NCBI RefSeq assembly: GCF_030144855.1
Contig: NC_082719.1
Span: 33,976,001 to 34,040,000 of the forward strand
Source: Hypanus sabinus
Lineage: Eukaryota
Length of the DNA: 64,000 nt
Direction: 5' to 3'
Both the position numbers and the translations under genes were made by a program. Position 1 is the first letter of the stretch. Each line of letters starts with the position of its first letter. Under the pieces are notes generated by a model. That model did not search any database. It was not told where the DNA came from and saw only the letters and a program-made list of their open reading frames with translations. Positions 1 through 44,090 of the stretch are shown here, piece by piece.

Positions 1-369
1 TACCAACTACATTTTCTCCTATTACTTCAGAGAACATCACCACTGAACATACTATAATCTGTATTCTACCATTTCGGGTTTTAATCTGGTAAATTTCTAC
101 AGTTCAGCTTTATCACCCTTCTACACGCTTTGCAAAAAAAGCCATTGCATTGAAAAATCAGTTGATACAGAAGTAAATCTAGATTATGAGTATTCAGTAT
201 CGTTGTGTACAGAACCTTGAATCCAAAGCTATTCGAGTTGCTTTTCAAGTTAAAGCCTCCAGAGGCAGTTTATTTTGAGTCTCATTTCAAATAATAGCAG
301 CAGGACTATAATAATAGCAGATTTTCTCAATGATTCATTCATTAGGCAATCTAAGAATAATGTGCAGCC

Positions 370-660
370 AGACAGCACTGTGGCACAGCGACTGCCTCAC
401 GACTCCAGTAACCCTGGTTCATTCGAACTTCTGGTGCAATATGGTGTTCTCACTCTTTTCCTGACAACATTGTTGTGGTTTAGGTGCTCTGATGTTTCCT
501 GCTCCTCATCCACCCTCACTTCTCCCTCCCCACTCTCAATTCAAGAACACAAGGGACTGAGGTTCCTTGCCTAAAACGAGGCCAATTTATAGTGGCCAAA
601 GGGCACAATCTGGAAAGGAGGTGATGGAAATGTGGGAAGAATAAGAGTTCAGCATAAAGT
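370..660 (+). mobile_element. Old tRNA-derived SINE remnant in intron 2 (copies at ~13185 and ~26050)
   Basis: gcactgtggcacag...actgcctcac...ctccag...cctggttc head with decayed A/B boxes. Confidence 0.45.
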
Positions 661-715
661 TGTTGGGTAGTGAGTACTGAAGACTGAAAGGTCCACCTGC
701 ATTCATATTACTTAC

Positions 716-1742
716 CACAGGCAGCGTAATCTGATGTTCTGCAAGCCTCATTTTCCATGCATTTGTGAGAGAAGTAAAAGACTGTAATATAGAACATTTA
801 CAAAGTTACTATACATCGCCAACCAACATTAACACATCTGCACTTATTAAACAAAACTCGAGTCAGTTTAATTATATTTGGCCCAATGATAGAAACTCAA
901 AGTGAGATATTCATCATGTTTCATTTACACTCATTTCGACAGAGTTCGTTTCCTAGATAAGATGCTCCTGCATCTATCTATCCCTTCACCAGAAGGTGGC
1001 TGGTTATATTACAGGAGACATTTGGCTAGATCATATCACTAAATTAGTCCAATTCAATGCTCACTCTATTGAACTGAAAGCAAGCGCAAACCTTCCATTC
1101 AGCTGAGTAGCATGTCAAGCGCGCAGTTTTCGAGAGACCCAACACCCGCAAATTTGCATCAAGATCCCAAAGTTACATCAAAAGCACAAGAACAAAGAGC
1201 CGCAAATCAAAATTGACATATACTTCAATAGTCTTTAGGAAGCGTTAGCATGGAAAGAATCTAACACGTCGAGAGGGATGCAGCCCCCTTATCAGAACTA
1301 TTACGAAAGGCATAGTTTGAAAGAAGTTTAGCACAAACACGGGATTCTACAGAAGCTGCCAATCTTGAGCAACACACAAAATGCCACAGCAACTCAGCAA
1401 GTAAGGCACGTTTGACTGGCTGAGTTCCTCCAGAATTCTGTGCGTGTTTGAAAGAAGCTTAACGTTTCATTTACAGACACAAACCGCCTATGGAATAATC
1501 AACTTCCTGAGAATTAAAACAATCACTGTCAGGCAAGAGAGATTAATTTAGAAATTCAAATCAAACTAGTTGCCGACAATTAAAATGCAAAACCTCTCAC
1601 CTAATATAAAAGCAGTCAGTGCTGCAGCTATTAAGACAAACAGCGTGGTTGTTGTTATTGCTAGTATCTTTAAAAGTCTGTCCGTCGGTATCCGAGTCTT
1701 CACTTCTTCGGTCTTGGCCGATTCTACATTCACGTTGCTCAT
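716..1742 (-). CDS. Same protease gene, copy A, exons 1 (1742-1601) and 2 (781-716); the remainder lies left of the window
   Basis: Exons match copies B and C. Donors GTGAGA and GTAAGT, acceptor tattacag. Confidence 0.88.
1331..1445. mobile_element. Penelope-derived fold-back mini-element in intron 1 (all three units)
   Basis: Two inverted pseudo-LTR pieces flanked by a 16-bp TSD, gtttgaaagaag(t/c)tta (1315-1330 / 1446-1461). Confidence 0.7.
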
Positions 1743-1789
1743 TTTGACCACTGGAGCGCAGGTCCTCTGCTTACTCTCGGATAGCAACC

Positions 1790-2440
1790 ACCTGGGAGGA
1801 ATGAAGACGACGCGCCAACCGGCCGCAACTTATCCAGATGGGCGCGTGACGTCATCTGCCCCCAGGTAGGAGCCGATGCGTAATTTTCCGTGTCCCGATG
1901 CGGCCATCTGCCGTTAACCGACTTTCATTGGCGAGCTCGCGAAACAAGTACAAGCAGGTCCGACAAGTGGGATGAATTTGTTGGTACGTGCGGGAAGTTG
2001 ACGAGCGCGCTGTTTCGTTAATGAGTTAAACGGCCTGACCAAAGTGTAAAAAAAGGGCTTCTTTCCCCCCGCTCTTTCAGCTGTCTGAACTCCAGGAGGA
2101 AATAGAATCCTTTCTTTTGCATTTGTTAATGATTGTGGGAGGTTGAAAACTGGAGGAACGATGATGAGTTGAGGAAGAACTTCTGAGTGGGTGGGGTAGG
2201 TGACAGAGATGGAATTTGCAGCCCTGCTTCGGTCCGGGTCGACCGTGCATATCGTTGGGTGTGGTACGATATGGAGAGCAATTTATTGCCCTTCCCCTCT
2301 CCACGCAGCTGATGAATCCAACGGAACTGCAGGGACCGATACGGCGCAGGAGTTCGGGTATATCGCAATACTCACGTGCTGAACCCCGCAGTCTGCATGA
2401 AGACATCAGTCACAGTTCGACTTCCCTCGAACGAACTGGC
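1790..2440 (-). promoter_or_regulatory. CpG-rich, TATA-less promoter of copy A with a palindromic CRE (TGACGTCA 1847-1854), a MYB-type site (ccgtta ~1911-1916) and a CCAAT box (attgg 1927-1931)
   Basis: Clear local CpG enrichment in a CpG-depleted background. The motifs lie 105-190 bp upstream of the ATG. Confidence 0.7.
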
Positions 2441-2939
2441 TAACACAGGACTATTGGTACTTACTCCTTGGAGCCATTCATTTGGACAAAAACTTGCACA
2501 ATGGCGTCTCTCCTTCAAATGGCATTGGGCGATTATCTTCCCTTCTGCCCCACTTCACAGCTCCTGCTAAAAGACACAAACCAGATTACTGTCCTTCAGA
2601 AATCTCATCCCACACAGCTCTCTACTGGGCAGAAAGTTACCACACGTACCCAGACAGATCTGATTGGTTGGCACAACGTTCTTAAGTTGGGCAACATGGC
2701 TTCTTGTCTTTAGTGGAAGCCAAAACATTCATTCTAACAGGACACAGAAAACTGCTAAAATAAAAATTCCTCACAGCAAAGTAGTAGAAATTGCACGGCA
2801 AATGAAATTAGTTTAAAAGGTAATTATTATTACAGGAAACACAACAAAGGCCAGAAACTGTAATGTGACTGTGACCAAGTAATCTGTTTAGCGAGGTTGG
2901 ATCTTTGACTGTTAGACTCTCCTCCCTCCCTTTCATCCT

Positions 2940-4372
2940 GAACTCAGTGCCCACCAGGGCTGTGTGCTCTGCTCGCACATGATTGCACTGTCAAGCACCT
3001 AAGTAATCACATTGTAAAGTTCACTGATGAGGAAAAAAGTCAGGTTTAATATCACTGGCATGCCTCATGAAATGACAGGACACCAACAATGATGAGATGG
3101 CCTACTCATCAATATGCATTATGAAGGACCCCACACACCCCTCATACAAACTCCTCTCCCTCCTGCCATCTGGGAAAAGGCACCGGAGCATTTGGGCTCT
3201 CACGACCAGACTATGTAACAGTTTCTTCCCCCAAGCTATCAGATTCCTCAATACCCGAAGCCTGGTCTGGCACCAACTTAGTGCCCTCTACTGTGCCTAT
3301 TGTCTTGTTTATAAATTATTGTAATGCCTGCACTGTTTTGTGCTCTTTATGCAGTCCTGGGTAAGTCTGAGTCTAGTGCAGTTTTTTGTTCTGTGTTTTT
3401 TTACATAGTTCAGTCTAGTTTTTGTACTGTTTCATGTGGCACCATGGTCCTGAAAAACGTTGTCTTGTTTTTACGGAGTACTGTGTCAGCAGTTATGGTC
3501 AAAATGACAATAAAAAGTGTCTTGACTTGACTTGAAAAGAGGTAGAGGAGTCCGAGGCTAAGTGCCACACAGATAACCTCTTCGTCAACGTTAGCATTGA
3601 CCAAGGAGATGGTTTTCGCCTTCGTGAGAACTCACAAAACTCACATCCCTCTTTACATCGGTGGCACAGCAGTGGAAACTGTAAGCTGTTTCAAGCTCTT
3701 GGGAGTGCACATCACACACAACCTCTCATGGTCCCAGAACACATCCCACACTATCAAGAAAGCTCGTCAATGCCTCTGTTTTCTGAGGAGGCTGGACTGA
3801 GCTACTGCACATCAATACTCACAATCTTCTACAGAGTATCCTAACTGGATGCTTCACTGCGTGGTGGCAGATAGGAAGGCTCTACAACAGGTGGTTAAAC
3901 CTGCCCATCGCGTCACCAGCGCAAGCCTACCCACCATCAAAGACATAGAGAACAGAAAGGTGTGGGAAACAATCCACCGATATCATGAATGATCCCACGC
4001 ACTCTACTCATGGACTCCCATCAGGGAAAGGCTACGTAGCATTCACACCAGGACCACTAGACTCAAAAACATTTGCTTTCCCCAAGCAGTAAAGGTGATC
4101 AACACCTCCACCCACTAAACCTCATTCCACACGCCCCACCATTTCCTATTAGAATCATCGTATATCCAGGCACTCCTGCCCCAACTGTCACTTTATGTGC
4201 ATACTATCTGTTTTTTATGAGTTATTTTGTGTATTTACATTTATTGTGGTTTTACAGTGTTCTTTAACTTAGTGTGTGTTTTTTTTCTGTGCTGCATTAG
4301 ATCTGGAGTAATGATTATTTTGTTTTCCTTTACACTAGTGTACTGGAAATGACGCTAAACATCTTGAAGCTT
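2940..4372 (+). mobile_element. Nested, decayed Rex1/Babar-like LINE fragments (all three units)
   Basis: KDPTHP...LLPSGKR-x-RS...TTRLCNSFFPQAIR and FKLLGVHITHNLSWSQNT...KKARQ-x-L-x-FLRRL, with a gacttgacttga tail. Confidence 0.75.
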
Positions 4373-4417
4373 GATGAGTCAGAATAAAGAACAAACAGGC
4401 TGTTCCTTTCTTTATTT

Positions 4418-5279
4418 TATTCAGTAATAATTAGCTAATACCTCTTCCAGAAGGCAGCACCCCTGGAGCATTTTATAGAAATGTTGACTGACTTTTTATT
4501 TTTCAGTCTCTTGTCAGGGCTTCGGACTTAATTGTGACTGAGGTCATGACTCACGGTTGGGATTTGATCTAGAGAACAATGTTAAGGAACAGGCAAAATG
4601 GCTTGAATGGTATGTTGGAAATAAGTGTAAGTAGGACATTTATCACCTAAGGCAAAATAGTCTTTGATTTATTTTCCAGGATGTATTGTTAAAGTTGACA
4701 CACAAGACTGGAATCTGGAACGAAAAAAATAACTGCAAGAAGAACTCAACAGTTCATCTGTAAAGATAAAGATAGTTGATACGTAAGGTTGAGATATTGC
4801 ATCAAGCAGAACCTTCTACCTGCAGGATTTTATTTTGTATTTAAGTTATGCAGATGTTTTTACTAATTTCAGCTTTGTTTGCTCATTCCAAATTGCCACA
4901 GAGGTGGCAATAACGAGTAGGAAGATTTACCAAGGAGAAATGGCAACGTACTCAGAAATCCGAATGTTGTACAGTTTGAACTTGAAGTTGCAGATAATGG
5001 AGTTGTAATAGGGATGTATTCTTGTCCTTCTAAGAGGTAGAGGGTCGGGGTTTGGGAGATACTGTTTATGAACCCTGTTCATTCTGTTTATGAACTCATT
5101 TTGCCTGTTCCTTAACATTGTTCCCTAGATCAAGTCCTAACCGTGAGTCATGACCTCAGCCACAATTCAGTCCGAAGCCCTGTCAAGAGACTGAAAAATA
5201 AAAAAGTCGGTCAACATTTCTGTGAAATGTTCCGGGGTGCTGCCTTCTGGAAGAGGTATTAGCTAATTATTACTGAATA
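4418..5279. repeat. 183-bp inverted repeat (arms 4418-4600 and 5097-5279); also at 17266-18134 and 30103-30971
   Basis: tattcagtaataattagctaatacctcttccagaaggcagcacc...ggaacaggcaaaatg is reverse-complemented about 500 bp downstream, ~93% identical by eye. Confidence 0.95.
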
Positions 5280-5952
5280 TACAGTATAAACAAGGTTCTG
5301 TTAACCCTGTTTATGAAGTTAATGGATTGTAGTTTGTCGATGGCAAACTCAGCCATAATGCATGATGGTAGAGAGTCTGAATGTTTATCCTGGTAACTGG
5401 GGTGTCCATCAACTGTCAGTTTTTAACCTACCCCTGACCTGAACTATTCATGTTTCCAACACCATATCAGGGTTAAGTTTCTAGTTAATCATTATTTCAC
5501 TTCTAATGGCATTTCTAGACTGTATGCGCATGTGGACAAGATATGCTAAAGCTTAGAATTAGGTTTGTTAACCCAGCTGGTCCATTTTGTGGATTACTTT
5601 CCACAAGAAGATTTGATGTTTCTGAGTCACTGAGTACCAAAGTGAATGACAACTTTGGTGAAGTTCCTTCATGGAAAGGGAGAGTTAATGATATATGGCC
5701 CGATATCAATGGAGTATTGATTTGGGAGCACGGTCATTGGTGAGTATAGATTATTGATTAATGCAGTTACTGCTGGGCTGGCTAGAACAGTTGGAGCTGT
5801 ACGTGGACAGCTATGTGATTTCCACATCCTGAACATTATGGTAGATAGTAGGTTTAGTGTGCTGGTCACTCCACAAATACAGAAAGAGTGGAGATGGATG
5901 ACCACTCGGAAGAACAGTCAGGCCCTGCATATTGTACAGAAATCCCTCAGAC

Positions 5953-6132
5953 CATAAGACATAGGAGCAGTATGAAGCCATTCAGCCTATTGAGTCTACT
6001 CCATTATTCAATCACGGCTGGTTTATTATCCCTCTCAACCCCATTCTCCTCCCTTCTCCCCATAATCTTGGATATCCTTGCTAATCAAGAAACCATCACC
6101 CTCCTCTTTAAGTATACCCAACAACTTGGTCT
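5953..6132 (-). mobile_element. CR1 3' end truncated at the junction LTR (also 18823-19002)
   Basis: The same element continues uninterrupted in unit C at 31648-~32190. Confidence 0.8.
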
Positions 6133-6733
6133 TGTTATGTCCGCAGCCCCCTCATTTATGAGAATTGCAAGAGCCCTAGTGGGGGGGGGGGGGGGGTCAG
6201 TAGACCCAGGAAATGGGAGAGAGACGCACCAGAAGAAACGCTAATGATCCCGTAGCAGGGGAAGCCATTTGAAGGAAGCCACGTGCGTTCGGTTCCCCTT
6301 GCTTGGGAGCCGGTGGCAGGTACCACAGAACCGATATTCGTGAACTAACAACGGGGAACCAACTTTCCCGATTCAACGGATTTGCTTCATAAAAGGCCCG
6401 GGCAAGTTTCTTTTCTCACAAATCTCTCTTTCTCCAACAAGTGAAAACCCAGTGGTCCCCAAAGGCTGAAGCCTGCAGGAACTGAGTGACTTTTATATTT
6501 CCATCGGACAATATATTATCCCCTAGACAAACGATCGAGCTGTTTCTTATTGATGGTTATTATTAGACCTGCGCTTTTAGATTGAGTAGTGACGACATAT
6601 ATTATCTGAATGTTTGTATTAATCTTATTTTTGTGCCCCTTTATAAATAAAGACTTTTAAAATTAGTACCATCAGACTTCAACGGACCTCTCTATCTTTG
6701 CTGGTAAGTGACCTAGTTACTGGGTACGTAACA
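6133..6733 (+). mobile_element. Solo LTR at the A/B duplication junction
   Basis: TGTTA...TAACA termini, internal CATAAAA and AATAAA (~6646). Flanks gtct / actt show no TSD. No PBS or internal region follows. Confidence 0.8.
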
Positions 6734-6944
6734 ACTTGGGAGAACGTACAAGTTTCTTACAGACCACAGCAGGAATCAAACCCTGATCGGTGATAGATAA
6801 CATTGTAAGGTGATTGCACTAACTGCTATGCTTCCAAGACGCCCCTTTACAAACATCTCTGGCACTTCAAATGTCAGTGAAATTACAAATTAAATTACGA
6901 TGCTTAAGCATAGTTTATAATAAGTATTAAAAACAATTCCAACA

Positions 6945-7580
6945 GAGAACATAGAACAATACAACATAGGAACAAGCGCTTTGTCCCCAAATGTTGTGCT
7001 GAGTCAATTAAATTGGTAATCAAATGGCCAATTAAACTAATCCCTTCTGCCTCCTCAATATCCACATCCTCCAATTCTCCTCACTTTCATGTGCCTATCT
7101 AAATGTTTCTAACATATCTGCCTCTACCAACACACCATGCAGCACATTCCAGGCACCCACCAATCTCTGTAAAAACTTGCCCCTCACATCTCCTTTGAAA
7201 TTATCCCTTCTCATCTTAAATGCATGCCCTCTGACATTAGGTATTTCCTGGTTTTAAAAAAAGATAATGCCTGTCTATTCTAACTATGCCCCTCATAATC
7301 TTTTAAACCTCTATCAGATCTCTTCTCAGCCTCTGCTATTGCAGAGAAAACAGACCAAGTCTGTCCAAACTCTCAGGAAAGCACATGCCCTCTAATCCAG
7401 GTAAACCTCATCTGCACCTTCTCCAAAGCCTCAACATCCTTCCTTTGGTGGGGTGAGTTGTTTGCAAAACTCCAGAAGCAGCCTAACTAGAGTTTTATAA
7501 AGCTACAACATAACTTGCTGGCGTTTGAATTCAACGCCTTGACTAATAAAGGCAAGCATGCCAATATGCACCCTGTCAAC
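6945..7580 (-). mobile_element. CR1 LINE 3' fragment (copy at ~19815-20450)
   Basis: Antisense GMLAFISQGVEFK...VML and CR1 3' UTR/tail. Confidence 0.75.
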
Positions 7581-8525
7581 CCATGAGTAGACGTGGAACC
7601 TCTTATAAGAGCACAAAGTGCCCTTCCTCCATGTCACACCCTCTAGCAAGATCCTATTTGATCCAGTTGTGACCTTAGCACCCCTCGTCTCCATCTTATC
7701 CAAATGACTCTAATTTGCGCACATTTAATCACTTTGCCTTCACTGGTCTGGAAGTCCTCTGAAATGGGCACCTCCTTTTGCCTCACTGACGGACCCTTGT
7801 TCTACAAAGCCCCATTGGTGGAAAGGCATCCAGTTAGCATTGGCCACACTCAAATTCTTGTATCTTTCAATAAGGTGTATTCTTTGGTGCTTGGGATAAG
7901 CACAATTTGTTCAACCGCACTACATACATTAACCCTTTAATTTTAGGAATTAACCTATTGCCACTTGTCTGCTCTCAAGAGAAAGTGTTTGAGGTTATTT
8001 TGCCTAAGGGCTTCACCAAATCTCCCCCACCCTACCACAGGATATTTCAAAACATTCTGGTCCTCTGTAACACATGGGACCCTCCTGTGCACTAATTAAA
8101 TGCTTTATGTCCTGTAGTACAGTTATCATAATTCATTGGCTTCGCTATAAATGCAAGTTATTTTCACTCTGGTTTGAGGATTGGAACTGTGCAGATTTGA
8201 TGAATTAGTCTTCCCTATCAATGGTATTTTCTTCTGTTGACAAAAATGGAATACTGCATAGTGGAACATAGGGATATAATTTGGGAAGGAGCACATTGTA
8301 AAATTAAGTGATTATGGAATTAGGTCAGGAAATTGGTATTACAGTAAAAGATCAGCTGTGACCTTATGATTATCAGGACAATGCAAATGGTAAAGGACTG
8401 CTGTTTTCCCCCAATGGGCAAAGACTACGAGTGTACAGTAGTGATGAATTTAAGAAAATGCATCACTGTTCTCCCTTCTGAATTACACAGCTTTAAAGAC
8501 AAACTTTATAATCTTAAATTATATT

Positions 8526-8531
8526 TTTATT
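8526..8531 (-). terminator. Candidate polyadenylation signal AATAAA of copy B
   Basis: tttatt on the + strand ~440 nt past the stop codon, after an AU-rich 3' UTR. Confidence 0.55.
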
Positions 8532-8968
8532 GCAAACAGTTGGACACATCTTACATTACATTAGTGAACAGTACATTTTATAAATTGTTACATTGTAACA
8601 TACAGAATTCCACCACTTGTGATGGTTAAATAGCCATGGTATGGCCAAATAATAAGTTTAACAGAATCTTTTATATTTCTAACGTATACTTTTCCAAGGA
8701 GACCATTTAAGCAATCCATTTAATAAATAGTAATGCTATTAAAAATACAAATGACAACAGCACTATGCTTTAGCTGGTTGATTGCCATAGAGCTGGACAG
8801 TTCAAAATCCAGATGTTCTCCAAATGGGACTTGTTATACTAAGGCTCAAATTGAAAGCTTTTTTCCAAAGCTACAGTATTTCCCACACAGACTTCTATAT
8901 GGGGTGGAAGTATTAAAAACACAACAAATCTAGGCAAATTCCTAGAAAGACTGTCACAAATGAGGCTG

Positions 8969-11900
8969 CTATTGATTTGTATTTTCCATTATCCAATTTC
9001 GAACAGACACTGTCTGCATATATACACCAGGCTGATGAGGTCTTCCACAGCCTCTTCCAAAGGAAACAACTCCTGCCAATAACCATGCCTGAGAACCCTC
9101 ATCTTGGCACAGCAATGGTCCTCCAGAATCTCCCTGGGAAGAAAAGAAAGCAAGGTTGAGGATATGTTACACTTGGAGATCACCATGCAACCCCAACTAT
9201 CCTTACACATCTCAAACCCAAAGTGTTAGTTCCTTTCCATAGATACTTCGGACCGACAAGCCTTTTCTAGTATTTCTATTCATGCAATTCATTATGTTCA
9301 TCTTGGATACCGAGTGCCGTCTTACCAGCAAGTGAAAGGAGAAAATGAATCTCACACTACTCAGCTTTTCTTGAACTACACTCCAAAACTGTGCAACTCA
9401 GTACCTTAAACTACAAGGGATGCAGATTCAGTTGGCAGTGCCAGCTCAAAACCTATTGAACTAACATCTCATCTCTTCACTAAGATCTGTCTTGCATTTT
9501 CATGTTTGCACTTCGAAGTACATTGTATGAAAATTGCTCTATAAATTATTACTACTTCATCTGATACAAGCCTAAGTGGTTATTACACCAGAATTCAGTG
9601 CTTTCCAACTGCCCTGTTGGAAATTGTACCCACTGAGATGCAGAATGCAGCAGTTATTTTGAAAAGGGTTGCACGTGGGATTTTTGAGTTTTTGTATAAT
9701 CACAAGGATAAATTAGCTCTGCTTTAGAAAGCTACAGAAAAACAGCTAAAATGACTGCACTAATCTTAAAAGAACAATTGCTCGTCTCCAATTCTTGGAT
9801 ATACCCAGTGAGTAGTAAATGCACAGAAGGGCATGCACACCTTTCCTTGCTAAAGGATTTAGTGAAGGAGACAGAATGAAAATGTCACATGTCAATTCCA
9901 AAAAGATGAGTGGAAAGCAATCTGTTCAAACTAGCTCCCTACAGTTTGAGCAATGTATTTATAAACAAGCTGCACCATTTCAGTCACTCTACCATCGATT
10001 AAGCCAGCTCCAACATTACAGCCAAGCTATCAGACCCTAATGAAATTGCCACAATTTTAATGATGAGAACTTGATTACTCCACAGTATCCCCATTCATTC
10101 ACCTGCAAAAGCTTGGTCTAATACTGAGTTACCATTTCATGGCAAGTGATTAGATATAATTAACCTGAAGAGCATGGCATCCCACAGAAAAAAACTAATC
10201 AAATAACTCCATACCTGACATGCATCTCTTCCACCTTCAGCCACCCCCGCACAGATCATCTGTTCAGTTATGTTGGGCAGGTAATGCCGACATCGGCTGT
10301 TGCTGAAAACTTCCACTTCAGTCTTCAAAAGACTTCCACTGTCCTCTCCTATTGGCAATGAACAGCACAAAGTTAATATGCAGTCCAAAACAATGGCAAC
10401 ATACGTGAAGTGTCAGTCACCCCTATGCTGCATCACAACACCCTAGATAAATGGCCAAGCATTTTAAACAATCTGCAATTTAAACAATTTTAAAAATCCA
10501 AATGATCTTGCCAGAAAGTTACTTCCCTTAAATATCAGCAATTTTTAAAAAAACTATTCTTTCCAAGCTTGGCTTGTTCTTGTTTTAAACCCAAGACCTA
10601 TACTACCAGAACAGATCATGTAAAAGCTCATCTTAGGTAACCTATGGAAGATGGCTAATTCAACAAGTCTGACCCGTACCATTTTCACTTGTTTTTCCCC
10701 ATCCGACGGTTGTACAATTTCTGCCAGAAATGGATGTTGTGGGTGCAGGTAGACAAGCTGGTTGGACAAAGTCAGTGTATTCAACTGGCTGTGACAGCTG
10801 TAACAGGGCAACGTCATAATTAAAGGACGATGTTGCCTCGGGGTGAACGACCATCTTTGAAATTTTTCGTTTCTGTACACTGCTTGTTGGCTGAGCCAAG
10901 AAATTGATTCCAAGCACTGCAGTCCAGTTCTGTATATCACTAGAATTTAGAGGGAAAGCAAATGTTAGTCTGTGACGATTAAACACAAGGCCTCGCGTAT
11001 CCATCTTTGAATCAATTAAACATTTCCTTAAAATGCAATTAGAATATTTACTAAAGTATTTGCACAAAGTACTTAATTGGCAGAGTGTGGCACTTTATAT
11101 TACACATCTGAAACAGGTTGCCTTCAATATATAATTAAATGTAGCAACAATACAGACATCTCTGCTTCCATGCAATTACAATTTACAGTGCAAGGCAAAA
11201 CAATACTTTACAATAGCTTGCCGTGGGGGAACGTTGCATTTACCTGTCATTGACACAATGTGCAGCTGTTAAAATCCACCTACACGAGATAAGTGTTGCT
11301 CCACAGACGTGTCGGTTGTTCAACTGTATACTGGCTACAAAAGGCCACTCGCCACCATAGGTCTTCAGTCCACCTACAATTCTCTCAGATCGAGTTTTCT
11401 GTTGACCACAACCTGTTCAAAGGAAAAAAAAGTAGATTAATATGCCAAGCCATCAAAGATTTGCCCTCTTGATCTGTTAAAATCACAATTCAAAAGCTTT
11501 GATTCACTTCCTTATCAGGAACTTAACTATTTTCACAAGATGCCAAAACAAAGTACAGTACACGCTAGTTAACTGGGCCATCTGCTAACCAGGGCAGCCG
11601 GTTATTTGGGACAACTCTTAAAGAGCAAAAACAAATCAAGAAAAAAGCTGGGATTCCCCTGTTTATTTGGGACACTATGTTGCTTAATTGGGACAGAAGA
11701 AAATGTGCAAACAGTTTCTAACTAGAATCAGTCATGTGAACTTGTGTGGCTGTTAGACAACACTGTGCTGACAGCAAACAGTTTTTAAAAAACTTTCAGT
11801 TGTATGTGTTTGTGTTCAAAAAGTAGTGACTTTGGTCACTGATAGTTCACAAGAAATAAAGCAGTAAGGCAATCTGAATGCTTGAAACAGCAGTGAGAAA

Positions 11901-24800: not shown

Positions 24801-27423
24801 CCAGGAGTGAAAATGAAACAATTTCACTACTTCAGTCAGTTAGACACTCTGAAGAATGTGAAGGTATCGATGATCATCTTGAATGTTACACTGAAAATGA
24901 AGATTAAAGGATGTAATTGTCAAAAGCATTATATGAAGGCAGTCCATTATCTGCACTAGGTGTCAGTGCTGACCTTGTTCACTTACACAGCATACTCGAG
25001 ATGAATTCCTCCTTTGCTAACTATTAGGAACTGAGTTTCATAGTACTGTAGTAGCATCAGTGGTGTTTCAATTTGTCCTGCATTTTATTTAATTATACAA
25101 GTTCTTTCTCAGTTAAATGGTAGCTTGACTTTTTTTCATATATTTCCATGAAACTTCAGCTAATTGGGACAGCCACCTCGTTGGGCCAAAGTATACCTGT
25201 CCCAATTAACTGGAATCCACTGTATTCCCATGACCCAGCCTGATTAACTCCACCATGGATGATCCCAAGTCCAGCTGCAGAAGGAGATGGGGCTAGCAAC
25301 CCCATCCCGTAATAACCCAGAGCTACAGAATTGCCAACAGAAACTCCAAAGGCCTCATCCCTGAGAAAGGACGCATCTTTGCCGAGAAGATGCATGGCGA
25401 AACCACAAGCCCATGGAAGCCAGGAAGATGGAGATGATTAGGACGCAGTCTGTGCAAGCCAAGCACTAAAGAGGACTCCCCAGGGAAAGTGGAAGAGAGA
25501 CTGGCCAAAGGATACCTGGTGATGCGACCCTGAAGCTGAAATCAAGAAGATGGACTACACCTGGGGACAACTTGAAGACTACAGAAGACTGGTGAGCTGC
25601 TGTTGGTAGACTATGCCCCAATAAGGGGTGAAGGGCTTAATTAACTAATCCACTTGGGCTTTTGTGTTCAAGTACACTGAGTACCAACTACATTTTCTCC
25701 TATTACTTCAGAGAACATCACCACTGAACATACTATAATCTGTATTCTACCATTTCGGGTTTTAATCTGGTAAATTTCTACAGTTCAGCTTTATCACCCT
25801 TCTACACGCTTTGCAAAAAAAGCCATTGCATTGAAAAATCAGTTGATACAGAAGTAAATCTAGATTATGAGTATTCAGTATCGTTGTGTACAGAACCTTG
25901 AATCCAAAGCTATTCGAGTTGCTTTTCAAGTTAAAGCCTCCAGAGGCAGTTTATTTTGAGTCTCATTTCAAATAATAGCAGCAGGACTATAATAATAGCA
26001 GATTTTCTCAATGATTCATTCATTAGGCAATCTAAGAATAATGTGCAGCCAGACAGCACTGTGGCACAGCGACTGCCTCACGACTCCAGTAACCCTGGTT
26101 CATTCGAACTTCTGGTGCAATATGGTGTTCTCACTCTTTTCCTGACAACATTGTTGTGGTTTAGGTGCTCTGATGTTTCCTGCTCCTCATCCACCTTCAC
26201 TTCTCCCTCCCCACTCTCAATTCAAGAACACAAGGGACTGAGGTTCCTTGCCTAAAACGAGGCCAATTTATAGTGGCCAAAGGGCACAATCTGGAAAGGA
26301 GGTGATGGAAATGTGGGGAGAATAAGAGTTCAGCATAAAGTTGTTGGGTAGTGAGTACTGAAGACTGAAAGGTCCACCTGCATTCATATTACTTACCACA
26401 GGCAGCGTAATCTGATGTTCTGCAAGCCTCATTTTCCATGCATTTGTGAGAGAAGTAAAAGACTGTAATATAGAACATTTACAAAGTTACTATACATCGC
26501 CAACCAACATTAACACATCTGCACTTATTAAACAAAACTCGAGTCAGTTTAATTATATTTGGCCCAATGATAGAAACTCAAAGTGAGATATTCATCATGT
26601 TTCATTTACACTCATTTCGACAGAGTTCGTTTCCTAGATAAGATGCTCCTGCATCTATCTATCCCTTCACCAGAAGGTGGCTGGTTATATTACAGGAGAC
26701 ATTTGGCTAGATCATATCACTAAATTAGTCCAATTCAATGCTCACTCTATTGAACTGAAAGCAAGCGCAAACCTTCCATTCAGCTGAGTAGCATGTCAAG
26801 CGCGCAGTTTTCGAGAGACCCAACACCCGCAAATTTGCATCAAGATCCCAAAGTTACATCAAAAGCACAAGAACAAAGAGCCGCAAATCAAAATTGACAT
26901 ATACTTCAATAGTCTTTAGGAAGCGTTAGCATGGAAAGAATCTAACACGTCGAGAGGGATGCAGCCCCCTTATCAGAACTATTACGAAAGGCATAGTTTG
27001 AAAGAAGTTTAGCACAAACACGGGATTCTACAGAAGCTGCCAATCTTGAGCAACACACAAAATGCCACAGCAACTCAGCAAGTAAGGCACGTTTGACTGG
27101 CTGAGTTCCTCCAGAATTCTGTGCGTGTTTGAAAGAAGCTTAACGTTTCATTTACAGACACAAACCGCCTATGGAATAATCAACTTCCTGAGAATTAAAA
27201 CAATCACTGTCAGGCAAGAGAGATTAATTTAGAAATTCAAATCAAACTAGTTGCCGACAATTAAAATGCAAAACCTCTCACCTAATATAAAAGCAGTCAG
27301 TGCTGCAGCTATTAAGACAAACAGCGTGGTTGTTGTTATTGCTAGTATCTTTAAAAGTCTGTCCGTCGGTATCCGAGTCTTCACTTCTTCGGTCTTGGCC
27401 GATTCTACATTCACGTTGCTCAT
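21837..27423 (-). CDS. Same protease gene, copy C, complete; exons 27423-27282, 26462-26397, 24282-24114, 23809-23550, 23218-23085, 22001-21837
   Basis: Coding exons read identical to copy B by eye, with the same splice dinucleotides and stop codon. Confidence 0.93.
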
Positions 27424-27470
27424 TTTGACCACTGGAGCGCAGGTCCTCTGCTTACTCTCGGATAGCAACC

Positions 27471-28121
27471 ACCTGGGAGGAATGAAGACGACGCGCCAAC
27501 CGGCCGCAACTTATCCAGATGGGCGCGTGACGTCATCTGCCCCCAGGTAGGAGCCGATGCGTAATTTTCCGTGTCCCGATGCGGTCATCTGCCGTTAACC
27601 GACTTTCATTGGCGAGCTCGCGAAACAAGTACAAGCAGGTCCGACAAGTGGGATGAATTTGTTGGTACGTGCGGGAAGTTGACGAGCGCGCTGTTTCGTT
27701 AATGAGTTAAACGGCCTGACCAAAGTGTGAAAAAAGGGCTTCTTTTCCCCCGCTCTTTCAGCTGTCTGAACTCCAGGAGGAAATAGAATCCTTTCTTTTG
27801 CATTTGTTAATGATCGTGGGAGGTTGAAAACTGGAGGAACAATGATGAGTTGAGGAAGAACTTCTGAGTGGGTGGGGTAGGTGACAGAGATGGAATTTGC
27901 GGCCCTGCTTCGGTCCGGGTCGACCGTGCATATCGTTGGGTGTGGTACGATATGGAGAGCAATTTATTGCCCTTCCCCTCTCCACGCAGCTGATGAATCC
28001 AACGGAACTGCAGGGACCGATACGGCGCAGGAGTTCGGGTATATCGCAATACTCACGTGCTGAACCCCGCAGTCTGCATGAAGACATCAGTCACAGTTCG
28101 ACTTCCCTCGAACGAACTGGC
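27471..28121 (-). promoter_or_regulatory. CpG-rich promoter of copy C (CRE 27528-27535)
   Basis: Copy of the unit A promoter. Confidence 0.7.
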
Positions 28122-31100
28122 TAACACAGGACTATTGGTACTTACTCCTTGGAGCCATTCATTTGGACAAAAACTTGCACAATGGCGTCTCTCCTTCAAA
28201 TGGCATTGGGCGATTATCTTCCCTTCTGCCCCACTTCACAGCTCCTGCTAAAAGACACAAACCAGATTACTGTCCTTCAGAAATCTCATCCCACCCAGCT
28301 CTCTACTGGGCAGAAAGTTACCACACGTACCCAGACAGATCTGATTGGTTGGCACAACGTTCTTAAGTTGGGCAACATGGCTTCTTATCTTTAGTGGAAG
28401 CCAAAACATTCATTCTAACAGAACACAGAAAACTGCTAAAATAAAAATTCCTCACAGCAAAGTAGTAGAAATTGCACGGCAAATGAAATTAGTTTAAAAG
28501 GTAATTATTATTACAGGAAACACAACAAAGGCCAGAAACTGTAATGTGACTGTGACCAAGTAATCTGTTTAGCGAGGTTGGATCTTTGACTGTTAGACTC
28601 TCCTTCCTCCCTTTCATCCTGAACTCAGTGCCCACCAGGGCTGTGTGCTCTGCTCGCACATGATTGCACCGTCAAGCACCTAAGTAATCACATTGTAAAG
28701 TTCACTGATGAGGAAAAAAGTCAGGTTTAATATCACTGGCATGCCTCATGAAATGACAGGACACCAACAATGATGAGATGGCCTACTCATCAATATGCAT
28801 TATGAAGGACCCCACACACCCCTCATACAAACTCCTCTCCCTCCTGCCATCTAGGAAAAGGCACCGGAGCATTTGGGCTCTCACGACCAGAATATGTAAC
28901 AGTTTCTTCCCCCAAGCTATCAGATTCCTCAATACCCGAAGCCTGGATTGGCACCAACTTAGTGCCCTCTACTGTGCCTATTGTCTTGTTTATAACTTAT
29001 TGTAATGCCTGCACTGTTTTGTGCTCTTTATGCAGTCCTGGGTAAGTCTGTAGTCTAGTGCAGTTTTTTGTTCTGTGTTTTTTTACGTAGTTCAGTCTAG
29101 TTTTTGTACTGTTTCATGTGGCACCATGGTCCTGAAAAACGTTGTCTTGTTTTTACGGAGTACTGTGTCAGCAGTTATGGTCAAAATGACAATAAAAAGT
29201 GTCTTGACTTGACTTGAAAAGAGGTAGAGGAGTCCAAGGCTAAGTGCCACGCAGATAACCTCTTCGTCAACGTTAGCATTGACCAAGGTGATGGTTTTCG
29301 CCTTCGTGAGAACTCACAAAACTCACATCCCTCTTTACATCGGTGGCACAGCAGTGGAAACTGTAAGCCGTTTCAAGCTCTTGGGAGTGCACATCACACA
29401 CAACCTCTCATGGTCCCAGAACACATCCCAGACAATCAAGAAAGCTCGTCAATGCCTCTGTTTTCTGAGGAGGCTGGACTGAGCTACTGCACATCAATAC
29501 TCACAATCTTCTACAGAGTATCCTAACTGGATGCTTCACTACATGGTGGCAGATAGGAAGGCTCTACAACAGGTGGTTAAACCTGCCCATCGCGTCACCA
29601 GCGCAAGCCTACCCACCATCAAAGACATAGAGAACAGAAAGGTGTGGGAAACAATCCACCGATATCATGAATGATCCCACGCACTCTACTCATGGACTCC
29701 CATCAGGGAAAGGCTACGTAGCATTCACACCAGGACCACTAGACTCAAAAACATTTGCTTTCCCCAAGCAGTAAACCTCCACCCACTAAACCTCATTCCA
29801 CATGCCCCACCACCACTCCTTTATCATTTCCTCTTAGAATCATCGTATGTCCAGGCACTCCTGCCCCAACTGTCACTTTATGTGCATGCTATCTGTTTTT
29901 TATGAGTTAGTTTGTGTATTTACATTTATTGTGGTTTTATAGTGTTCTTTAACTTAGTGTGTGTTTTTTTTCTGTGCTGCATTAGATCTGGAGTAATAAT
30001 TATTTTGTTTTCCTTTACACTAGTGTACTGGAAATGACACTAAACATCTTGAAGCTTGATGAGTCAGAATAAAGAACAAACAGGCTGTTCCTTTCTTTAT
30101 TTTATTCAGTAATAATTAGCTAGTACCTCTTCCAGAAGGCAGCACCCCTGGAGCATTTCATAGAAATGTTGACCGACTTTTTATTTTTCAGTCTCTTGTC
30201 AGGGCTTCGGACTTAATTGTGACTGAGGTCATGTCTCACGGTTAGGACTTGATCGAGGGAACAATGTTAAGGAACAGGCAAAATGGCTTGAATGGTATGC
30301 TGGAAATAAGTGTAAGTAGGACATTTATCACCTAAGGCAAAATAGTCTTTGATTTATTTTCCAGGATGTATTGTTAAAGTTGACACACAAAACTGGAATC
30401 TGGAACGAAAAAGATAACTGCAAGAAGAACTCAACAGTTCAGGCAGCATCTGTAAAGATAAAGATAGTTGACACGTAAGGTTGAGATATTGCATCAAGCA
30501 GAACCTTCTACCTGCAGGATTTTATTTTGTATTTAAGTTATGCAGATGTTTTTACTAATTTTAGCTTTGTTTGCTCATTCCAAATTGCCACAGAGGTGGC
30601 AATAACGAGTAGGAAGATTTACCAAGGAGAAATGGCAACGTACTCAGAAATCCGAATGTTGTACAGTTTGAACTTGAAGTTGCAGATAAAGGAGTTGTAA
30701 TAGGGATGTATTCTTGTCCTTCTAAGAGGTAGAGGGTTGGGGTTTGGGAGATACTGTTTATGAACCCTGTTCATTCTGTTTATGAACTCATTTTGCCTGT
30801 TCCTTAACATTGTTCCCTAGATCAAGTCCTAACCGTGAGTCATGACCTCAGCCACAATTCAGTCCGAAGCCCTGACAAGAGACTGAAAAATAAAAACGTC
30901 GGTCAACATTTCTGTGAAATGTTCCGGGGTGCTGCCTTCTGGAAGAAGTATTAGCTAATTATTACTGAATATACAGTATAAACAAGGTTCTGTTAACCCT
31001 GTTTATGAAGTTAATGGATTGTAGTTTGTCGATGGCAAACTCAGCCATAATGCATGATGGTAGAGAGTCTGAATGTTTATCCTGGTAACTGGGGTGTCCA

Positions 31101-31198
31101 TCAACTGTCAGTTTTTAACCTACCCCTGACCTGAACTATTCATGTTTCCGACACCATATCAGGGTTAAGTTTCTAGTTAATCATTATTTCACTTCTAG

Positions 31199-31434
31199 AC
31201 TGTATGCGCATGTGGACAAGATATGCTAAAGCATATAATCAGGTTTGTTAACCCAGCTGGTCCATTTTGTGGATTACTTTCCACAAGAAGATTTGATGTT
31301 TCTGAGTCACTGAGTACCAAAGTGAATGACAACTTTGGTGAAGTTCCTTCATGGAAAGGGAGAGTTAATGATATATGGCCCGATATCAATGGGCTATTCT
31401 TTAATGGAGTATTGATTTGGGAGCACGGTCATTG
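31199..31434 (+). other. Candidate plus-strand exon of unknown identity (copies at 5519-5739 and 18374-18609)
   Basis: tttcacttctag acceptor, TG|gtgagt donor, non-repetitive sequence, one fully open frame (TVCACGQDMLKHIIRFVNP...GVLIWEHGH). Confidence 0.3.
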
Positions 31435-31647
31435 GTGAGTATAGATTATTGATTAATGCAGTTACTGCTGGGCTGGCTAGAACAGTTGGAGCTGTACGTG
31501 GACAGCTATGTGATTTCCACATCCTGAACATTATGGTAGATAGTAGGTTTAGTGTGCTGGTCACTCCACAAATACAGGAAGAGTGGAGATGGATGACCAC
31601 TCGGAAGAACAGTCAGGCCCTGCATATTGTACAGAAATCCCTTAGAC

Positions 31648-32190
31648 CATAAGACATAGGAGCAGTATGAAGCCATTCAGCCTATTGAGTCTACTCCATT
31701 ATTCAATCACGGCTGGTTTATTATCCCTCTCAACCCCATTCTCCTCCCTTCTCCCCATAATCTTGGATATCCTTGCTAATCAAGAACCCAATCACCCTCC
31801 TCTTTAAGTATACCCAACAACTTGGTCGAAACATCTGTCTGTAGCAATGAATTCCAGAGATTCACCATCCTTTGGCTAAAGAAATTCCTCCTCATCTCTG
31901 TTCTAAGGGGACATTCTTGTATTCTGAGGCTGTGCCTTCCTGGTCTGTGAGTCCACCACTATTGGAAACATCCTTTTCATGTCCACTCTATATTCTTTTA
32001 AACTTCAGCAAGTACAGGCCTGGATCTATCAAACATTCCAAATACTTTAACCCTTTCATTCCTGGGATCATTCTTGTTATCCTCCTCTGGACCCTCTCCA
32101 ATGCCACCTTTCTTAAAAAAGGAGCCCAGACTAGCCCTATGTACTCAAGTGCAGTTTGCCCAATGCCTTGTAAAGCCTCAGGATTACACC
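31648..32190 (-). mobile_element. CR1 LINE 3' fragment, uninterrupted (empty-site) version
   Basis: Continuous antisense CR1 sequence across 31827. Confidence 0.8.
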
Positions 32191-32289
32191 CTGGTGGTCA
32201 TTCCCTTCACTAACAACTATACCAGATTGGGTAGCTTGGTTAAGAGTCCTGGGGAGAACAGTAGAGACACCCCATTTCATGTCCAGAAA

Positions 32290-34865
32290 GGATGGATGGG
32301 AGCACAGCATAGGGATGGGGAATGCTATTGTGAGAGCGTCAGGTATGTATTTTTGTAGCCGCAAAAGGCATTGCAGATCAGCATGTTGTCTCACTGGTGC
32401 CAGGGTCTAGGATGTCATGCAGCAGTTGTGGACATTCTGAAAAGGGAAGGTGAACAGCCAGAATCCAAAGTAGTACTGAGATAGGCAGGAGAAGGAATGA
32501 ATTCCTGCAGCCCGAGTTTAGGGAGCTAGGTGGCTCTTTAAAAAGCAGGACCTCAAAGCTTGCAATCTATGGATTGCTGCAGGTGTCACAGAGTTAATGA
32601 GCGTAGTAATAGACGTGTAGGTCAGAAGAATGTGTGGCTGAAGAGATAATGCAGGTGATGGGCTTTTGGTTCCTGGGTCTTTGGGACTATTTCTGAGGAA
32701 AGCAGGACCTGTCCAAGTGGGGCAGATTGGAACTAACATTCTGGATGGAAGGTTTGCCAGAGCTGTTGTGGATGGTTTAAACTGACTTGTCAGTGAAGGG
32801 GGCTGAGAGCAGTTCTTCAGATGGAGAGCTACATGCTTCCTGAAGAGAAAATGTTAATGTCTTGTGGCAGGACAAGAAAGTAAGTATATATCAAGGGTAT
32901 TATAAATTAAACTGCATTTATCCCTGGAGTAGATGAACTCTAAGTTTTAATTAACGTGGAGACAACAATGTTCTTGCCATCACTGAGAAGTGACTGAAGG
33001 ATGGAGAGGACTAGCAACTCAGTACTTCAAGGTGTATACTTTTCAGACTAGACAGTTGGGAGAAAAAAGATGAGGGTGTATTGCACTTTTAGCCAGAGAT
33101 TGCATTACTTTAGTATTGAGGGAGAAGGCTCCTCAAATGAGGCACTGAGTAAAGATTAGAGACAAAAAGGATATTGTAACTTTGCTGGAGGTATATAACA
33201 GATGATAGAGGACTGGATACGCAGGCAGACATCAGTGAGATGCAATAAAAATAGGTTTATTGTATAGTACTGGGAAATTTCTGTTTCTGAAATATTAACT
33301 GTAATTGCCTTAGTGCTAGGGTTCAAAGGATGCAGAATTTTTTGAAGTGTGTCCAGGAGAGATTTTGATGCAGTATTGAGATAGGCCAATAAGGGAAGAG
33401 CATTCCTGGACCTTATCTTGGGGAATACCATTGGTCTAATTGAGGGAGAGTTTGTAGGAGAGCACTTTGAAGATGGATACTATAACTCTGTATATTTTAA
33501 AGTATATTGTATATACTTTATATACTGTATATTTTAAGCGTAGGTGTAGGTATATTGGTGAGGCCTGACGCAGACTGGGAGACCGTTTCGCTGAACAGCT
33601 ATGCTCTGCTCGCCAGAGACAGCAGGATCTCCCAGTGGCCACACATTTTAATTCCACATCCCATTCCCATTCTGATATGTCTATCCATGGCCTCCTCGAC
33701 TGTCAAGATGAAGCCACACTCAGGTTGGAGGAACAACACCTTATATACCAGCTGGGTAGCCTCCAACCTGAAGGCATGAACATTGACTTCTCTAACTTCC
33801 ATTAATGCCCCTCCTCCCCTTCTTACCCCATCCCTGATATATTTAGTTTTTTTTCCCTCCTTTTTTTTTCTTTCTTTCTCTGCCCATCACTCTGCCTGTT
33901 CTCCATCTCCCTCTGGTGCGCCCCTCCCCCTTTCTTTCTCCCTAGGCCTCCCGTCCCATGATCATTTCCCTTCTCTAGCTTTGTATCCCTTTTGCCAATC
34001 ACCTTTCTCTCTCTCAGCTTCACCCCACCCCCTCCGATCTTCTATCATTTTGCATTTACCCCTCCCCCTCCTACTTTCAAATCTCTTACTATCTTTCCTT
34101 TCAGTTAGTCCTGATGAAGGATCTCGGCTCAAAACGTCGACAGCGCTTCTCCCTATAGATGCTGCCCGGCCTGCTGCGTTCCACCGGTATTTTGTGTGTA
34201 TTGCTTGAAATTCCAGCATCTGCAGATTTCCTCGTGTGTGCGATTTAAAAAAGAAATTAGGATGACAAAGAGGATCTCAAGTAATCACGGCAGAATGGAT
34301 TAAGGTGAATCTGAAGGCAATTCATAAGTAAATGAAAGGAGGAAGAATAGCAAGGAAAAAAGTAAGGTATTCTGGGACCAGGGACAATAGGTATTCTGTG
34401 AACGGAAACAGAAGACATAGGTGAGATCCTAGCTGAATATTTTCCATCACAAAGGGAAAAGGCTTTGTAGTTGGAGAATTAAGTGAAGGGGTAGGTGGAA
34501 ACCTAGTGAAGGTCTCCATAAATAAAGAGGAGGTACTTGATGCTTTAGCTGGCTTAAAGATGGATAAATCTCTAAAGGTGAACAAAATATGTCCCAGGAT
34601 GCAGAGAGAGAAGAGATTGCTCATGATGTGGATGTGATGTCTCATTCTTTACTGGATGTGTGGGAGGTACCAGGTGACTGGAGGGCAGCAAATGTGGTCT
34701 CTGTTTTCATAAAAATCTGGTAACTATAGACTAGTGAATCTAACGTCAACACTAGGAAAGATATTGGAAAAAATTGAGGCAAAAGGTTACTAACTGCTAA
34801 GGTCTAAGCCTTCATGACTGTCAAGGTCAGATCTTGTATGACTAATTTGATTGAGTACTTTGTAA
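32290..34865 (+). mobile_element. Old decayed CR1 (ORF1 esterase to RT); resumes at ~39095-39250
   Basis: Degenerate esterase, endonuclease and RT similarity, interrupted by younger elements. Confidence 0.7.
33551..34240 (+). mobile_element. Penelope-like element 3' part: GIY-YIG endonuclease remnant plus pseudo-LTR with a mutated hammerhead
   Basis: YIGEA*RRLGDRFAEQL...PVATHFN...RLEEQHLIYQLGSLQPEGMNIDF. CTGATGA at 34111-34117 followed by AAAA rather than GAAA. Confidence 0.85.
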
Positions 34866-37800: not shown

Positions 37801-39090
37801 ACTTATTAGAAACAGTGAGCATGGTTTTGTGTGTGGTAGGACATGTTTAACCAATCTATTAGAGTTTTTCGAGGAAGTTACCAGGAAAGTGGATGAAGGG
37901 AAGGCAGTGGATGTTGTCTACATGGACTTCAGTAAGGCCTTTGACAAGGTCCCGCATGAGAGATTAGTTAGGAAGATTCAATTGCTAGGTATACATGGAG
38001 AGGTAGTAAATTGGATTTGACATTAACTCAATGGAAGAAGCCAGAGAGTGGTAGTGGAGGATTGCTACTCTGAGTGGAGGCCTGTGACTAGTGGTGTCCC
38101 ACAGGGATCAGTGCTGGGTCCATCGTTATTTGTCATCTATATCAATGATCTGGATGATAATGTGTCAAATTGGATCAGCAAATTTGCTGATGATACAAAG
38201 ATTGGAGGTGTAGTGGACAGTGAGGAAGGTTTTCAAAGCTTGCAGAGGGATTTGGACCAGTTGGAGGAATGGGCTGAAAAATGGCAGATGGAGTTTAATG
38301 TGGACAAGTGTGAGGTATTGCACTTTGGAAGGTCAAACCAAGGTAGAACATACAAGGTAAATGGTAGGACACTGAGGAGTGCAGTAGAACAGGGATCTGG
38401 GAGTACAGATACATAGTTCCCTAAAAGTGGCGTCACAAGAAGATAGGGTTGTAAAGAGAGCTTTTGGTACATTGGCCTTTATAAATCAAAGTATTGAGTA
38501 TAAGAGTTGGAATGTAATGGTGAGGTTGTATAAGACATTGGTGAGACCGAATTTGGAGTATTGTGTGCAGTTTTGGTCACCTAATTACAGGAAGGATATT
38601 AATAAGATTGAAAGAGTGCAGAAAAGGTTGCCAGGACTTGAGAAACTGAGCTACAAAGAAAGGTTGAATACGTTAGGACTTTATTCCCTGGAGTGTAGGA
38701 GAATGAGGGGTGATTTGATAGAGGTGTATAAAATTACGATGGGTATAGATAGAGTGAATGCAAGCAGACATTTTTCACTGAGGCCAGGGGAGAACAAAAC
38801 CAGAGGTGATGGGTTAAGGGTGAAGGGGAAAAAGTTTAAAGGGAAAATTGGGGGGGGGGGGGCTTCTTCATGCAGAGAGTGGTGGGAGTGTGGAATGAGT
38901 TGCCAGATGAAATGGTGAATGCAGGCTCACTTTTGACATTTAAGAAAAACTTGGACAGGTACATGGCGAGAGGGGTATGGAGGGATATGGCCCAGGTGCA
39001 GGTCAGTGGGACTAGGCAGAAAAATGGTTCGACACAGCCAAGAAGGGCCAAAAGGCCTGTTTCTGTGCTGTAATGTTCTATGGTTCTATG
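34876..39090 (+). mobile_element. Near-full-length CR1 LINE, disabled; ORF1 ~35160-36077 (Zn finger, coiled coil, SGNH esterase), ORF2 ~36220-39010 (APE endonuclease + RT)
   Basis: CSSC...CKKC, HIGTND, DGLHLN; IIAITETW, VGDFN, SDHN, YMDFSKAFDKV, GVPQGSVLGP, KFADDTK; TTCTATG tail. Stop at 38018-38020 and several frameshifts. Confidence 0.95.
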
Positions 39091-41035: not shown

Positions 41036-41252
41036 TGTGGTGAACTACATATACCTGTCTGGACATGCCCCCTGCTGACTGCTCCTGTGGCTCCTCCCAC
41101 AGACCCCTGTATAAAGGCGATCAAGGCCTGAGCCCAGCCTCTCAGTCTCCAGGATGTAGTATGGTGGTCACTCACTGCTTGTTCCTTCTTCCGGTCAATA
41201 AAAGCCGATATCTCACCTTTACGTCTCAGAGTGAGTTATTGATGGTGCATCA
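41036..41252 (+). mobile_element. Short solo LTR (217 bp) inserted in a CR1 fragment
   Basis: TG...CA termini, TATAAA, AATAAA, 5-bp TSD AGTGT. Confidence 0.85.
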
Positions 41253-43445: not shown

Positions 43446-44090
43446 CATGTTTGGTGTGTTGGGCTTCTTCAACCCTGGGATTGAATTCAAGTGTCATGAG
43501 GTAATGTTACAGCTATATAAAACCTTAGTTAGAACCTACTTGGAGTACTGTGTTCAGTTCTGGTCACCTCATTACAGGAAGGATATGGATACTATGGAAA
43601 GAGTGCAGAGGAGATTTACAAGGATGTTCCCTGGATTGGGGAGCATGCCTCATGAGAATAGGTTGAGTGAACTTGGGCTTTTCTTTCATTGGAGTGACGG
43701 AAGATGAGAGGTGACCTGATAGAGGTGTATAAGATGATGAGAGGCAATAACCAGAGGCTTTTTTCCAGGGCTGAAATGTCTAGCAAAAGGGTGCATAGTT
43801 TTAAGGTGCTTGGAAGTAGGTACAAGGGGGATGTCAGAGGTAAGTTTTTAATACAGAGAGTGGTGGGTGCGTGGAATGCACTGCCAGCAAAGGTGGTAGA
43901 GGCAGATGCAATAAGGTCTTTTAAGAGACTCTTAGATAGGTACATGGAGCTTAGAAAAAATAGAGGGCTATACAGTAGGGAAATTCTAGGCAGTTTCATG
44001 GTATTCTAGGTAGGATACAAGGTCAGCACAACATTGTGAGCCGAAGGGCCTGTAATGAGCTGCAGATTTAGATATTTCTATGTCTCTATG
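43446..44090 (+). mobile_element. CR1 3' fragment in intron 5 of the pseudogene
   Basis: LYKTLVRTYLEYCVQFWSP...MRGDLIEVYK, followed by a tail. Confidence 0.9.

Follow-up and report, generated by a model that had tools for sequence, protein, structure and literature searches.

Elements with long terminal repeats (LTRs) that lie at the junctions of duplications are usually ascribed to crossover between two copies of the element. The Drosophila Bar1 duplication is a case of this kind, in which a complete roo element lies between units of 203.5 kb, and which the part of the published account drawn on here ascribes to unequal crossover of two roo insertions (PMC13322080). In the maize Ac/hAT reversed-ends duplications, as set out in the sections of PMC3744419 that concern us, the repeats start exactly at the element, the middle copy of the element has no matching direct repeat (TSD), and one breakpoint is free of the element; this route requires that the element be a class II transposon and that the first copy have a TSD of its own.

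One-ended LTR integration is known mainly from retrovirus experiments in cultured cells. The excerpts used here of the work of the Hughes laboratory on aberrant ASLV and HIV-1 integration (PMC5041404) describe how integrase inserts one viral DNA end and how the unjoined 3' end then, by way of a short homology, primes host synthesis on DNA in the vicinity. Several pieces can be added in this way, and recombination yields duplications of hundreds to thousands of bp (PMC5041404, same excerpts). Among the 15 XMRV proviruses described in the portion of PMC2857682 consulted, there was one transversion directly beside the left LTR and one duplication of 273 bp. The large duplications described in PMC10462705 are, in the part of that source available, not tied to insertions, and so they offer no precedent.

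The locus reported here shares features with each of these systems. Like Bar1, as described in those parts of PMC13322080, it has a single LTR element between tandem gene-bearing copies; unlike Bar1, the element is a solo LTR, and its end matches the target site in a manner that crossover does not predict. It is like the aberrant ASLV, HIV-1 and XMRV integrations, so far as the excerpts of PMC5041404 and PMC2857682 go, in that the element lies between host copies far longer than a TSD, and also in the short homology at one end, the extra piece of host DNA apparently appended and the changed or extra base beside the left LTR. Those events were, however, somatic, in cell culture, and involved full proviruses, often truncated at one end, with duplicated stretches of hundreds to thousands of bp, whereas the array here is apparently inherited, has a solo LTR with intact ends, includes a whole gene and was later amplified, and its 12.2-kb span is greater than the duplication sizes quoted in the same excerpts. 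With the maize duplications of PMC3744419, as far as that source was available, it has in common that the repeats start exactly at the element, that the middle copy has no matching TSD and that one breakpoint is element-free, although the element here is LTR-like. In its working the locus would seem comparable to an aberrant provirus flanked by a long duplication, and in its appearance to Bar, its membership of either class being putative. A literature search that took in few subscription papers and no supplements found no case in which duplication of a gene in the germ line was put down to one-ended or aberrant LTR integration.

Array architecture and the duplicated protease gene

The window, by which we mean the whole 64-kb stretch of Hypanus sabinus DNA that was analysed, contains a tandem head-to-tail array of at least three copies with a period of ~12.85 kb, extending by self-BLAST from before position 1 to position 31827. 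Unit 1 is partial (1-6131, its left end lying beyond the window) and is followed by unit 2 (6132-19001) and unit 3 (19002-31827). Positions 1-19001 align with 12815-31827 at 98.7% identity and positions 1-6131 with 25682-31827 at 98.0%, the array copies being 0.4-1.4% apart. The same comparison finds 12.2 kb of host DNA repeated on either side of the element that marks the junctions, the first copy of this DNA lying beyond the window. Every unit also contains a pair of inverted repeats of 184 bp, 93-94% alike and ~500 bp apart (4418-4600 and 5097-5279, and again within 17266-18134 and 30103-30971), which could represent a foldback or a MITE-like element.

Between units 2 and 3 there are 80 substitutions, of which 53 are transitions, together with several multi-base indels. 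In the 6.1 kb that is present three times, each copy has private changes of its own (29, 24 and 31), and because of these the three copies are real paralogs and not alleles or read errors; the existence of three distinct copies also rules out haplotype stitching as the source of the array. Divergence between units 2 and 3 is uneven, at 0.28-0.49% over 6134-15800 and 1.41% over 15801-19000 (binomial p 2e-9, for a breakpoint at 15800/15801 that was picked after the data had been seen), and the stretch upstream of the protease gene is ~4x more divergent between units than the gene and the part downstream of it. This suggests conversion or selection over the protease gene, in which case the age of the array could not simply be read from its divergence.

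The gene in question is on the minus strand. In unit 2 it is intact (8969-14576), with six exons encoding 311 aa and a Pfam Trypsin match, and in unit 3 (21837-27423) its GT-AG sites are kept and all 936 coding bases are identical to those of unit 2. Exons 1-2, which are the part present in unit 1 (716-1742), are likewise identical to unit 2. The start of the gene is CpG-rich, and the Trypsin profile was recovered in all three of the protease exons scanned. The encoded protein has a hydrophobic stretch from residue ~31-34, IVGG at 81, and His, Asp and Ser motifs at 119, 168 and 258, and its best solved relatives are matriptase/ST14 and enteropeptidase. An N-terminal anchor with a C-terminal trypsin domain and intact triad motifs is what is found in type II transmembrane serine proteases, and all of these are present in the product, a type II membrane trypsin-like serine protease. 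It resembles matriptase/ST14, enteropeptidase, hepsin and TMPRSS in its N-terminal hydrophobic anchor, IVGG activation site and His-Asp-Ser trypsin domain; unlike them, it is only 311 aa long and has a very short stem, with no room for SEA, CUB or LDLa domains. An older protease paralog, decayed by stops and frameshifts, lies downstream of the array in the same orientation (42721-49853, minus strand). It is 61-64% identical over the aligned stretches and is evidently an earlier tandem duplication.

The junction element, its flanks and the array end

At both junctions the order of sequences is the same: the 3' fragment of a LINE ending in ...AACTTGGTC, a single extra T, the element, and then ACTTGGGAGAACG. 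The element is on the plus strand and is 601 bp long at junction 1 (6133-6733) and 600 bp at junction 2 (19003-19602), reading TGTTATG...CGTAACA in each case. A first-pass annotation of this DNA had given its span as 5953-6850, a range that also takes in the adjoining LINE and SINE-like pieces, and had placed a solo LTR at every duplication junction, which is so at the two junctions that are visible in an array that runs off the left end of the window. The two copies differ by 4 substitutions and 2 indels, and a G run within the element differs in length between them. Of the four substitutions, three lie together in 13 bp close to the 5' end (6154-6166 compared with 19024-19036), and it is possible that this cluster came by conversion from another copy of the family.

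Judged from its terminal features only, the element fits a solo LTR. Its termini are TG...CA, with 7 of 8 terminal inverted bases matching (TGTTATGT and TGTTACGT), and with the neighbouring bases (T-TG..CA-A) the inverted repeat is one base longer on each side, or 8-9 bp in total. AATAAA occurs at 6646 in the junction 1 copy, 88 nt before the 3' end, and the longest open frame is 72 codons. No purine-rich tract lies beside the element (flank purine fractions 0.40 and 0.35), and no internal retroelement sequence is attached in either flank. BLAST found no other copies of the family in the 64-kb window, and an exact 24-base scan of prokaryote genome contigs gave 0 loci. The CpG o/e ratio of the element is 0.68 at junction 1 and 0.76 at junction 2, compared with 0.09 in the host LINE. 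Because its CpGs have been kept the element looks young, and this fits an insertion near the time of the duplication.

A solo LTR is expected to have a TSD of 4-6 bp. None is present here, as the first-pass annotation had stated: at none of the eight lengths tested (3-10 bp) does a direct repeat abut the element. The same annotation had set this against two other solo LTRs in the window with perfect 5-bp TSDs. The TSDs themselves are confirmed (AGTGT for the copy at 41036-41252, plus strand, and CTTCT for that at 61697-61910, minus strand), but the comparison is invalid because these two, which are 89% alike by BLAST, belong to another family, of 217 bp, with no BLAST hit to the junction element. 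They were found by reading the sequence and as a BLAST pair, scans for TG..CA with a TSD having returned many chance pairs and missed both of them. Elsewhere in the window there are large LINE remnants with long open frames and endonuclease and RVT_1 matches (35317-38918, 47370-48989 and 56639-57649), and a short repeat family that is palindromic, head to head, at 44613-44767 and 62231-62521, with further copies at 34038-34250, 51063-51194 and 61353-61482.

The LINE fragment to the left of the element (5948-6131, repeated at 18818-19001) is cut at the junction and is 98% identical to 31600-31827. It lies on the minus strand, as set by BLAST links to the RVT_1 frame at 56639-57649, and belongs to a clade that we take to be CR1-like. 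In character the repeats are reminiscent of a cartilaginous fish. The extra T between LINE and element (6132, and also 19002) stands where the empty site has G, and equals the base found at that column in all three other LINE copies. On the right side, the flank opens on the plus strand with ACTTGG (6734-6739, and also 19603-19608), which is identical to the six bases of the LINE that begin 9 nt to the left of the element and can be described as an interrupted pseudo-TSD. The earlier claim that the flanks do not match consequently holds in register only.

The sequence that follows on the right has the appearance of the truncated head of a tRNA-type SINE-like element (6738-6846, minus strand), a putative assignment that draws partly on the character of ray and shark SINEs and partly on a B-box-like motif at 6772-6782. 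The motif speaks for the SINE-like character that had been claimed for this flank, whereas Rfam, ARAGORN and the search for a second copy in the window do not. Rfam returned four sub-threshold chance hits and ARAGORN 0 tRNA genes for this piece, and neither nhmmer, BLAST nor local alignment found a second copy in the window, the best non-self local alignment scoring 49.5 against 43-53.5 for shuffled sequences. A scan allowing mismatches gave 11 hits, 2 of them to the piece itself and none a clear copy. The motif of the SINE-like piece was found at 0 loci in genome contigs and in no paper by full-text literature search.

At the array end, position 31827, the junction element is absent and the LINE is unbroken (31645-32192, minus strand), being colinear across that point with all three other copies in the window, just as had been noticed at first pass. 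Identity to these copies is 125/163, 115/166 and 89/164 on the left of 31827 and 117/161, 111/161 and 94/162 on the right. Recombination between two fixed LTRs (NAHR) predicts an element at the array end, and we reject it, as did the first-pass annotation, since none is there; this exclusion holds unless the end copy was later removed precisely through the repeated bases.

Origin of the founding duplication

The last 9 bases of the element together with the first 11 of the right flank (TACGTAACA ACTTGGGAGAA, 6725-6744) are identical at 16 of 20 positions to the empty target site at the array end (TACCCAACAACTTGGTCGAA, 31811-31830, plus strand). The register is shifted by 9 nt, and the match holds an exact core of 10 bp that sits within the last 20 nt of the left flank. 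Its parts are AACA (7/9 when TAC is included) and then ACTTGG. A core within 20 nt of the join arose in 52 of 2,000,000 random window pairs, and in 51 of 199,772 with a laxer window; none of the 88,184 other positions in the window reached 16/20, for which the figure with random 20-mers is 7e-5 over 21 offsets. Overall, the chance of the match is 3e-5 to 3e-4 for what was a post hoc find, and a twenty-fold discount on that account would still leave an estimated chance of <1%. The six flank bases by themselves are weaker (0.14-0.38% anchored, 4.8% unanchored), and the strength of the match comes from the addition of the element's own last bases to this modest flank-only part.

Just beyond the core, GAA at 31828-31830 is private to the array-end LINE copy, the other three copies having T(C/G)C. 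It is the only private run of three bases in 361 columns, begins exactly at the breakpoint and is the same as the SINE bases in the matching register. Most simply, GAA would be an old feature that helped to make partners of the two sites. It may also be a repair scar, in which case the empty site would be scarred rather than pristine.

The array was probably founded by an aberrant LTR integration that was half integrase-made and half host-made. The array structure, the sequence matches and the intact protease gene in each unit are direct observations, from which we infer the following steps. Integrase would first have joined the left (U3) end of the element into the LINE at the site that is now empty (31827/31828), the base beside this join having been altered or added as T. 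The free right (U5) end, ending TACGTAACA, could then have paired with the similar host sequence TACCCAACA immediately to the left of this join, and host polymerase would have copied ACTTGG onto it. Either within the same repair event or afterwards, the extended end might have been joined, through the short and imperfect ACTTGG..GAA match, to a chromatid free of the element, at the SINE that lies ~12.2 kb upstream. This would leave 12.2 kb duplicated, the element standing between the two copies and being absent from the end. Subsequent collapse of the element to a solo LTR, and multiplication of the units by unequal crossing over, would complete the array; the model requires the collapse to have come before amplification, and every join would carry the same LTR because the crossing over followed it.

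One feature of one-ended integration, short homology between the element end and the host template that would have been copied, is present, although it was recognised post hoc. The left end of the element, an intact TG with one changed or extra base beside it, may be the normal integrase-made end. The central proposal of the first-pass annotation, that an LTR linking two sites made or marked the founding join, is supported. Of the two routes it offered, aberrant integration gains from the 16/20 match and from the single changed base at the left end, whereas crossover between two polymorphic insertions, which does not predict the match, loses ground. To the fuller proposition, that one-ended LTR integration in the vertebrate germ line made a 12-kb 'pseudo-TSD', duplicated an entire functional protease gene together with its promoter and was the seed of a multi-copy array in which the priming trail can still be read, we would give about an even chance.

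A different origin can be envisaged in which the LTR was already present in the SINE at the left site, with an ordinary TSD of 4-6 bp (from ACTT up to ACTTGG). The LINE would later have suffered a break or a stalled fork, and microhomology repair (MMBIR or polymerase-theta type) onto the TSD copy at the left would have left an insertion of 1-3 bases; the LTR would be a bystander that starts every unit including the first. Microhomology repair is commonly taken to be the main source of tandem duplications, and ACTTGG with the following T would give 7 bp of microhomology, shared by the LINE on one side and, on the other, by a left TSD of 6 bp with the first base of the element; furthermore, no polymorphic or fresh insertion is required. 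However, the breakpoint must fall <=1 nt from the start of the element, the join holds three bases (TCT) beyond a clean microhomology join, and the AACA, TAC and GAA matches are left unexplained. We consider this origin unlikely, while allowing it some weight.

An event of the Bar type, that is, unequal crossover between two independent LTR insertions of the same family ~12.2 kb apart on different chromatids, would leave the join with a single solo LTR, possibly a chimera, and the end site empty. Its architecture is identical to that observed, with the element at the junction and none at the distal end, and it would produce a solo LTR in a single step with both ends as normal integrase joins, as they would seem to be here. 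There is also precedent, since one roo lies between the Bar copies (PMC13322080) and unequal exchange between roo elements occurs de novo as well (PMC7003089), according to those parts of the two sources that were available. In such a crossover the flanks should nevertheless be independent, yet the in-register 16/20 match includes the end of the element (3e-5 to 3e-4), and two nearby insertions are needed of a family that has no other copy in 64 kb. Taking these points together we regard a Bar-type origin as improbable.

It is likewise improbable that the element is something other than a solo LTR inserted by integrase. It might be a cDNA of LTR length that was taken up at a double-strand break, ACTTGG then being the element's own spacer and primer-site start, or a short-TIR DNA transposon rejoined by alternative transposition in the manner of maize Ac. 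ACT-TGG does resemble the spacing from LTR to primer site, but no tRNA-like continuation follows TGG on the right side of the element. For a DNA transposon it can be said that T-TG..CA-A lengthens the inverted repeat by one base per side, and that in the duplications produced by Ac reversed-ends transposition the element marks the exact start and its middle copy has no TSD (PMC3744419, in the sections cited above). Against it, the inverted repeat is only 8-9 bp, the AATAAA 88 nt before the 3' end is LTR-like, and alternative transposition makes no prediction of the 16/20 match.

An assembly artefact, whether a false duplication or a misjoin at 31827, is very improbable, for although the analysis is of the assembly alone and the G run of the element varies in length between copies, the three copies are distinct, with private changes in a star-like pattern (29/24/31), transitions in a ratio of 2:1 and indels of several bases, and the LINE is in register across 31827 with equal identity on both sides, its other copies being 54-77% alike and so too distant to be confused with it. 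Further schemes were rejected. Recombination of a SINE tail with a LINE tail does not agree with a junction at which 180 bp of LINE directly abut the element and a SINE core is lacking, and a simple exchange within the 16/20 stretch would yield a join with no LTR. For an LTR to have inserted by chance at a join that existed already, it would have had to strike that join exactly, and TCT would still lack an explanation.

Significance for the duplication of genes

The tandem architecture and both candidate mechanisms have already been described, and the mechanism at this locus is one that we infer. Since the classes of mechanism are known, the value of the locus lies in its being a clear natural example. 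If the array did arise from a botched integration, a single fresh insertion can duplicate an entire gene, and no other copy of the element need lie nearby. The signature left at the junction, in which the end of the element matches host bases left of the join, the pseudo-TSD is interrupted and the end site is empty, can be searched for genome-wide. Were this origin to be correct, TSD-less solo LTRs at duplication junctions would represent a countable and overlooked route of new-gene origin. At this locus, repeated duplication of a single membrane protease gene is represented by an old decayed paralog and by a young array in which the coding sequence is identical.
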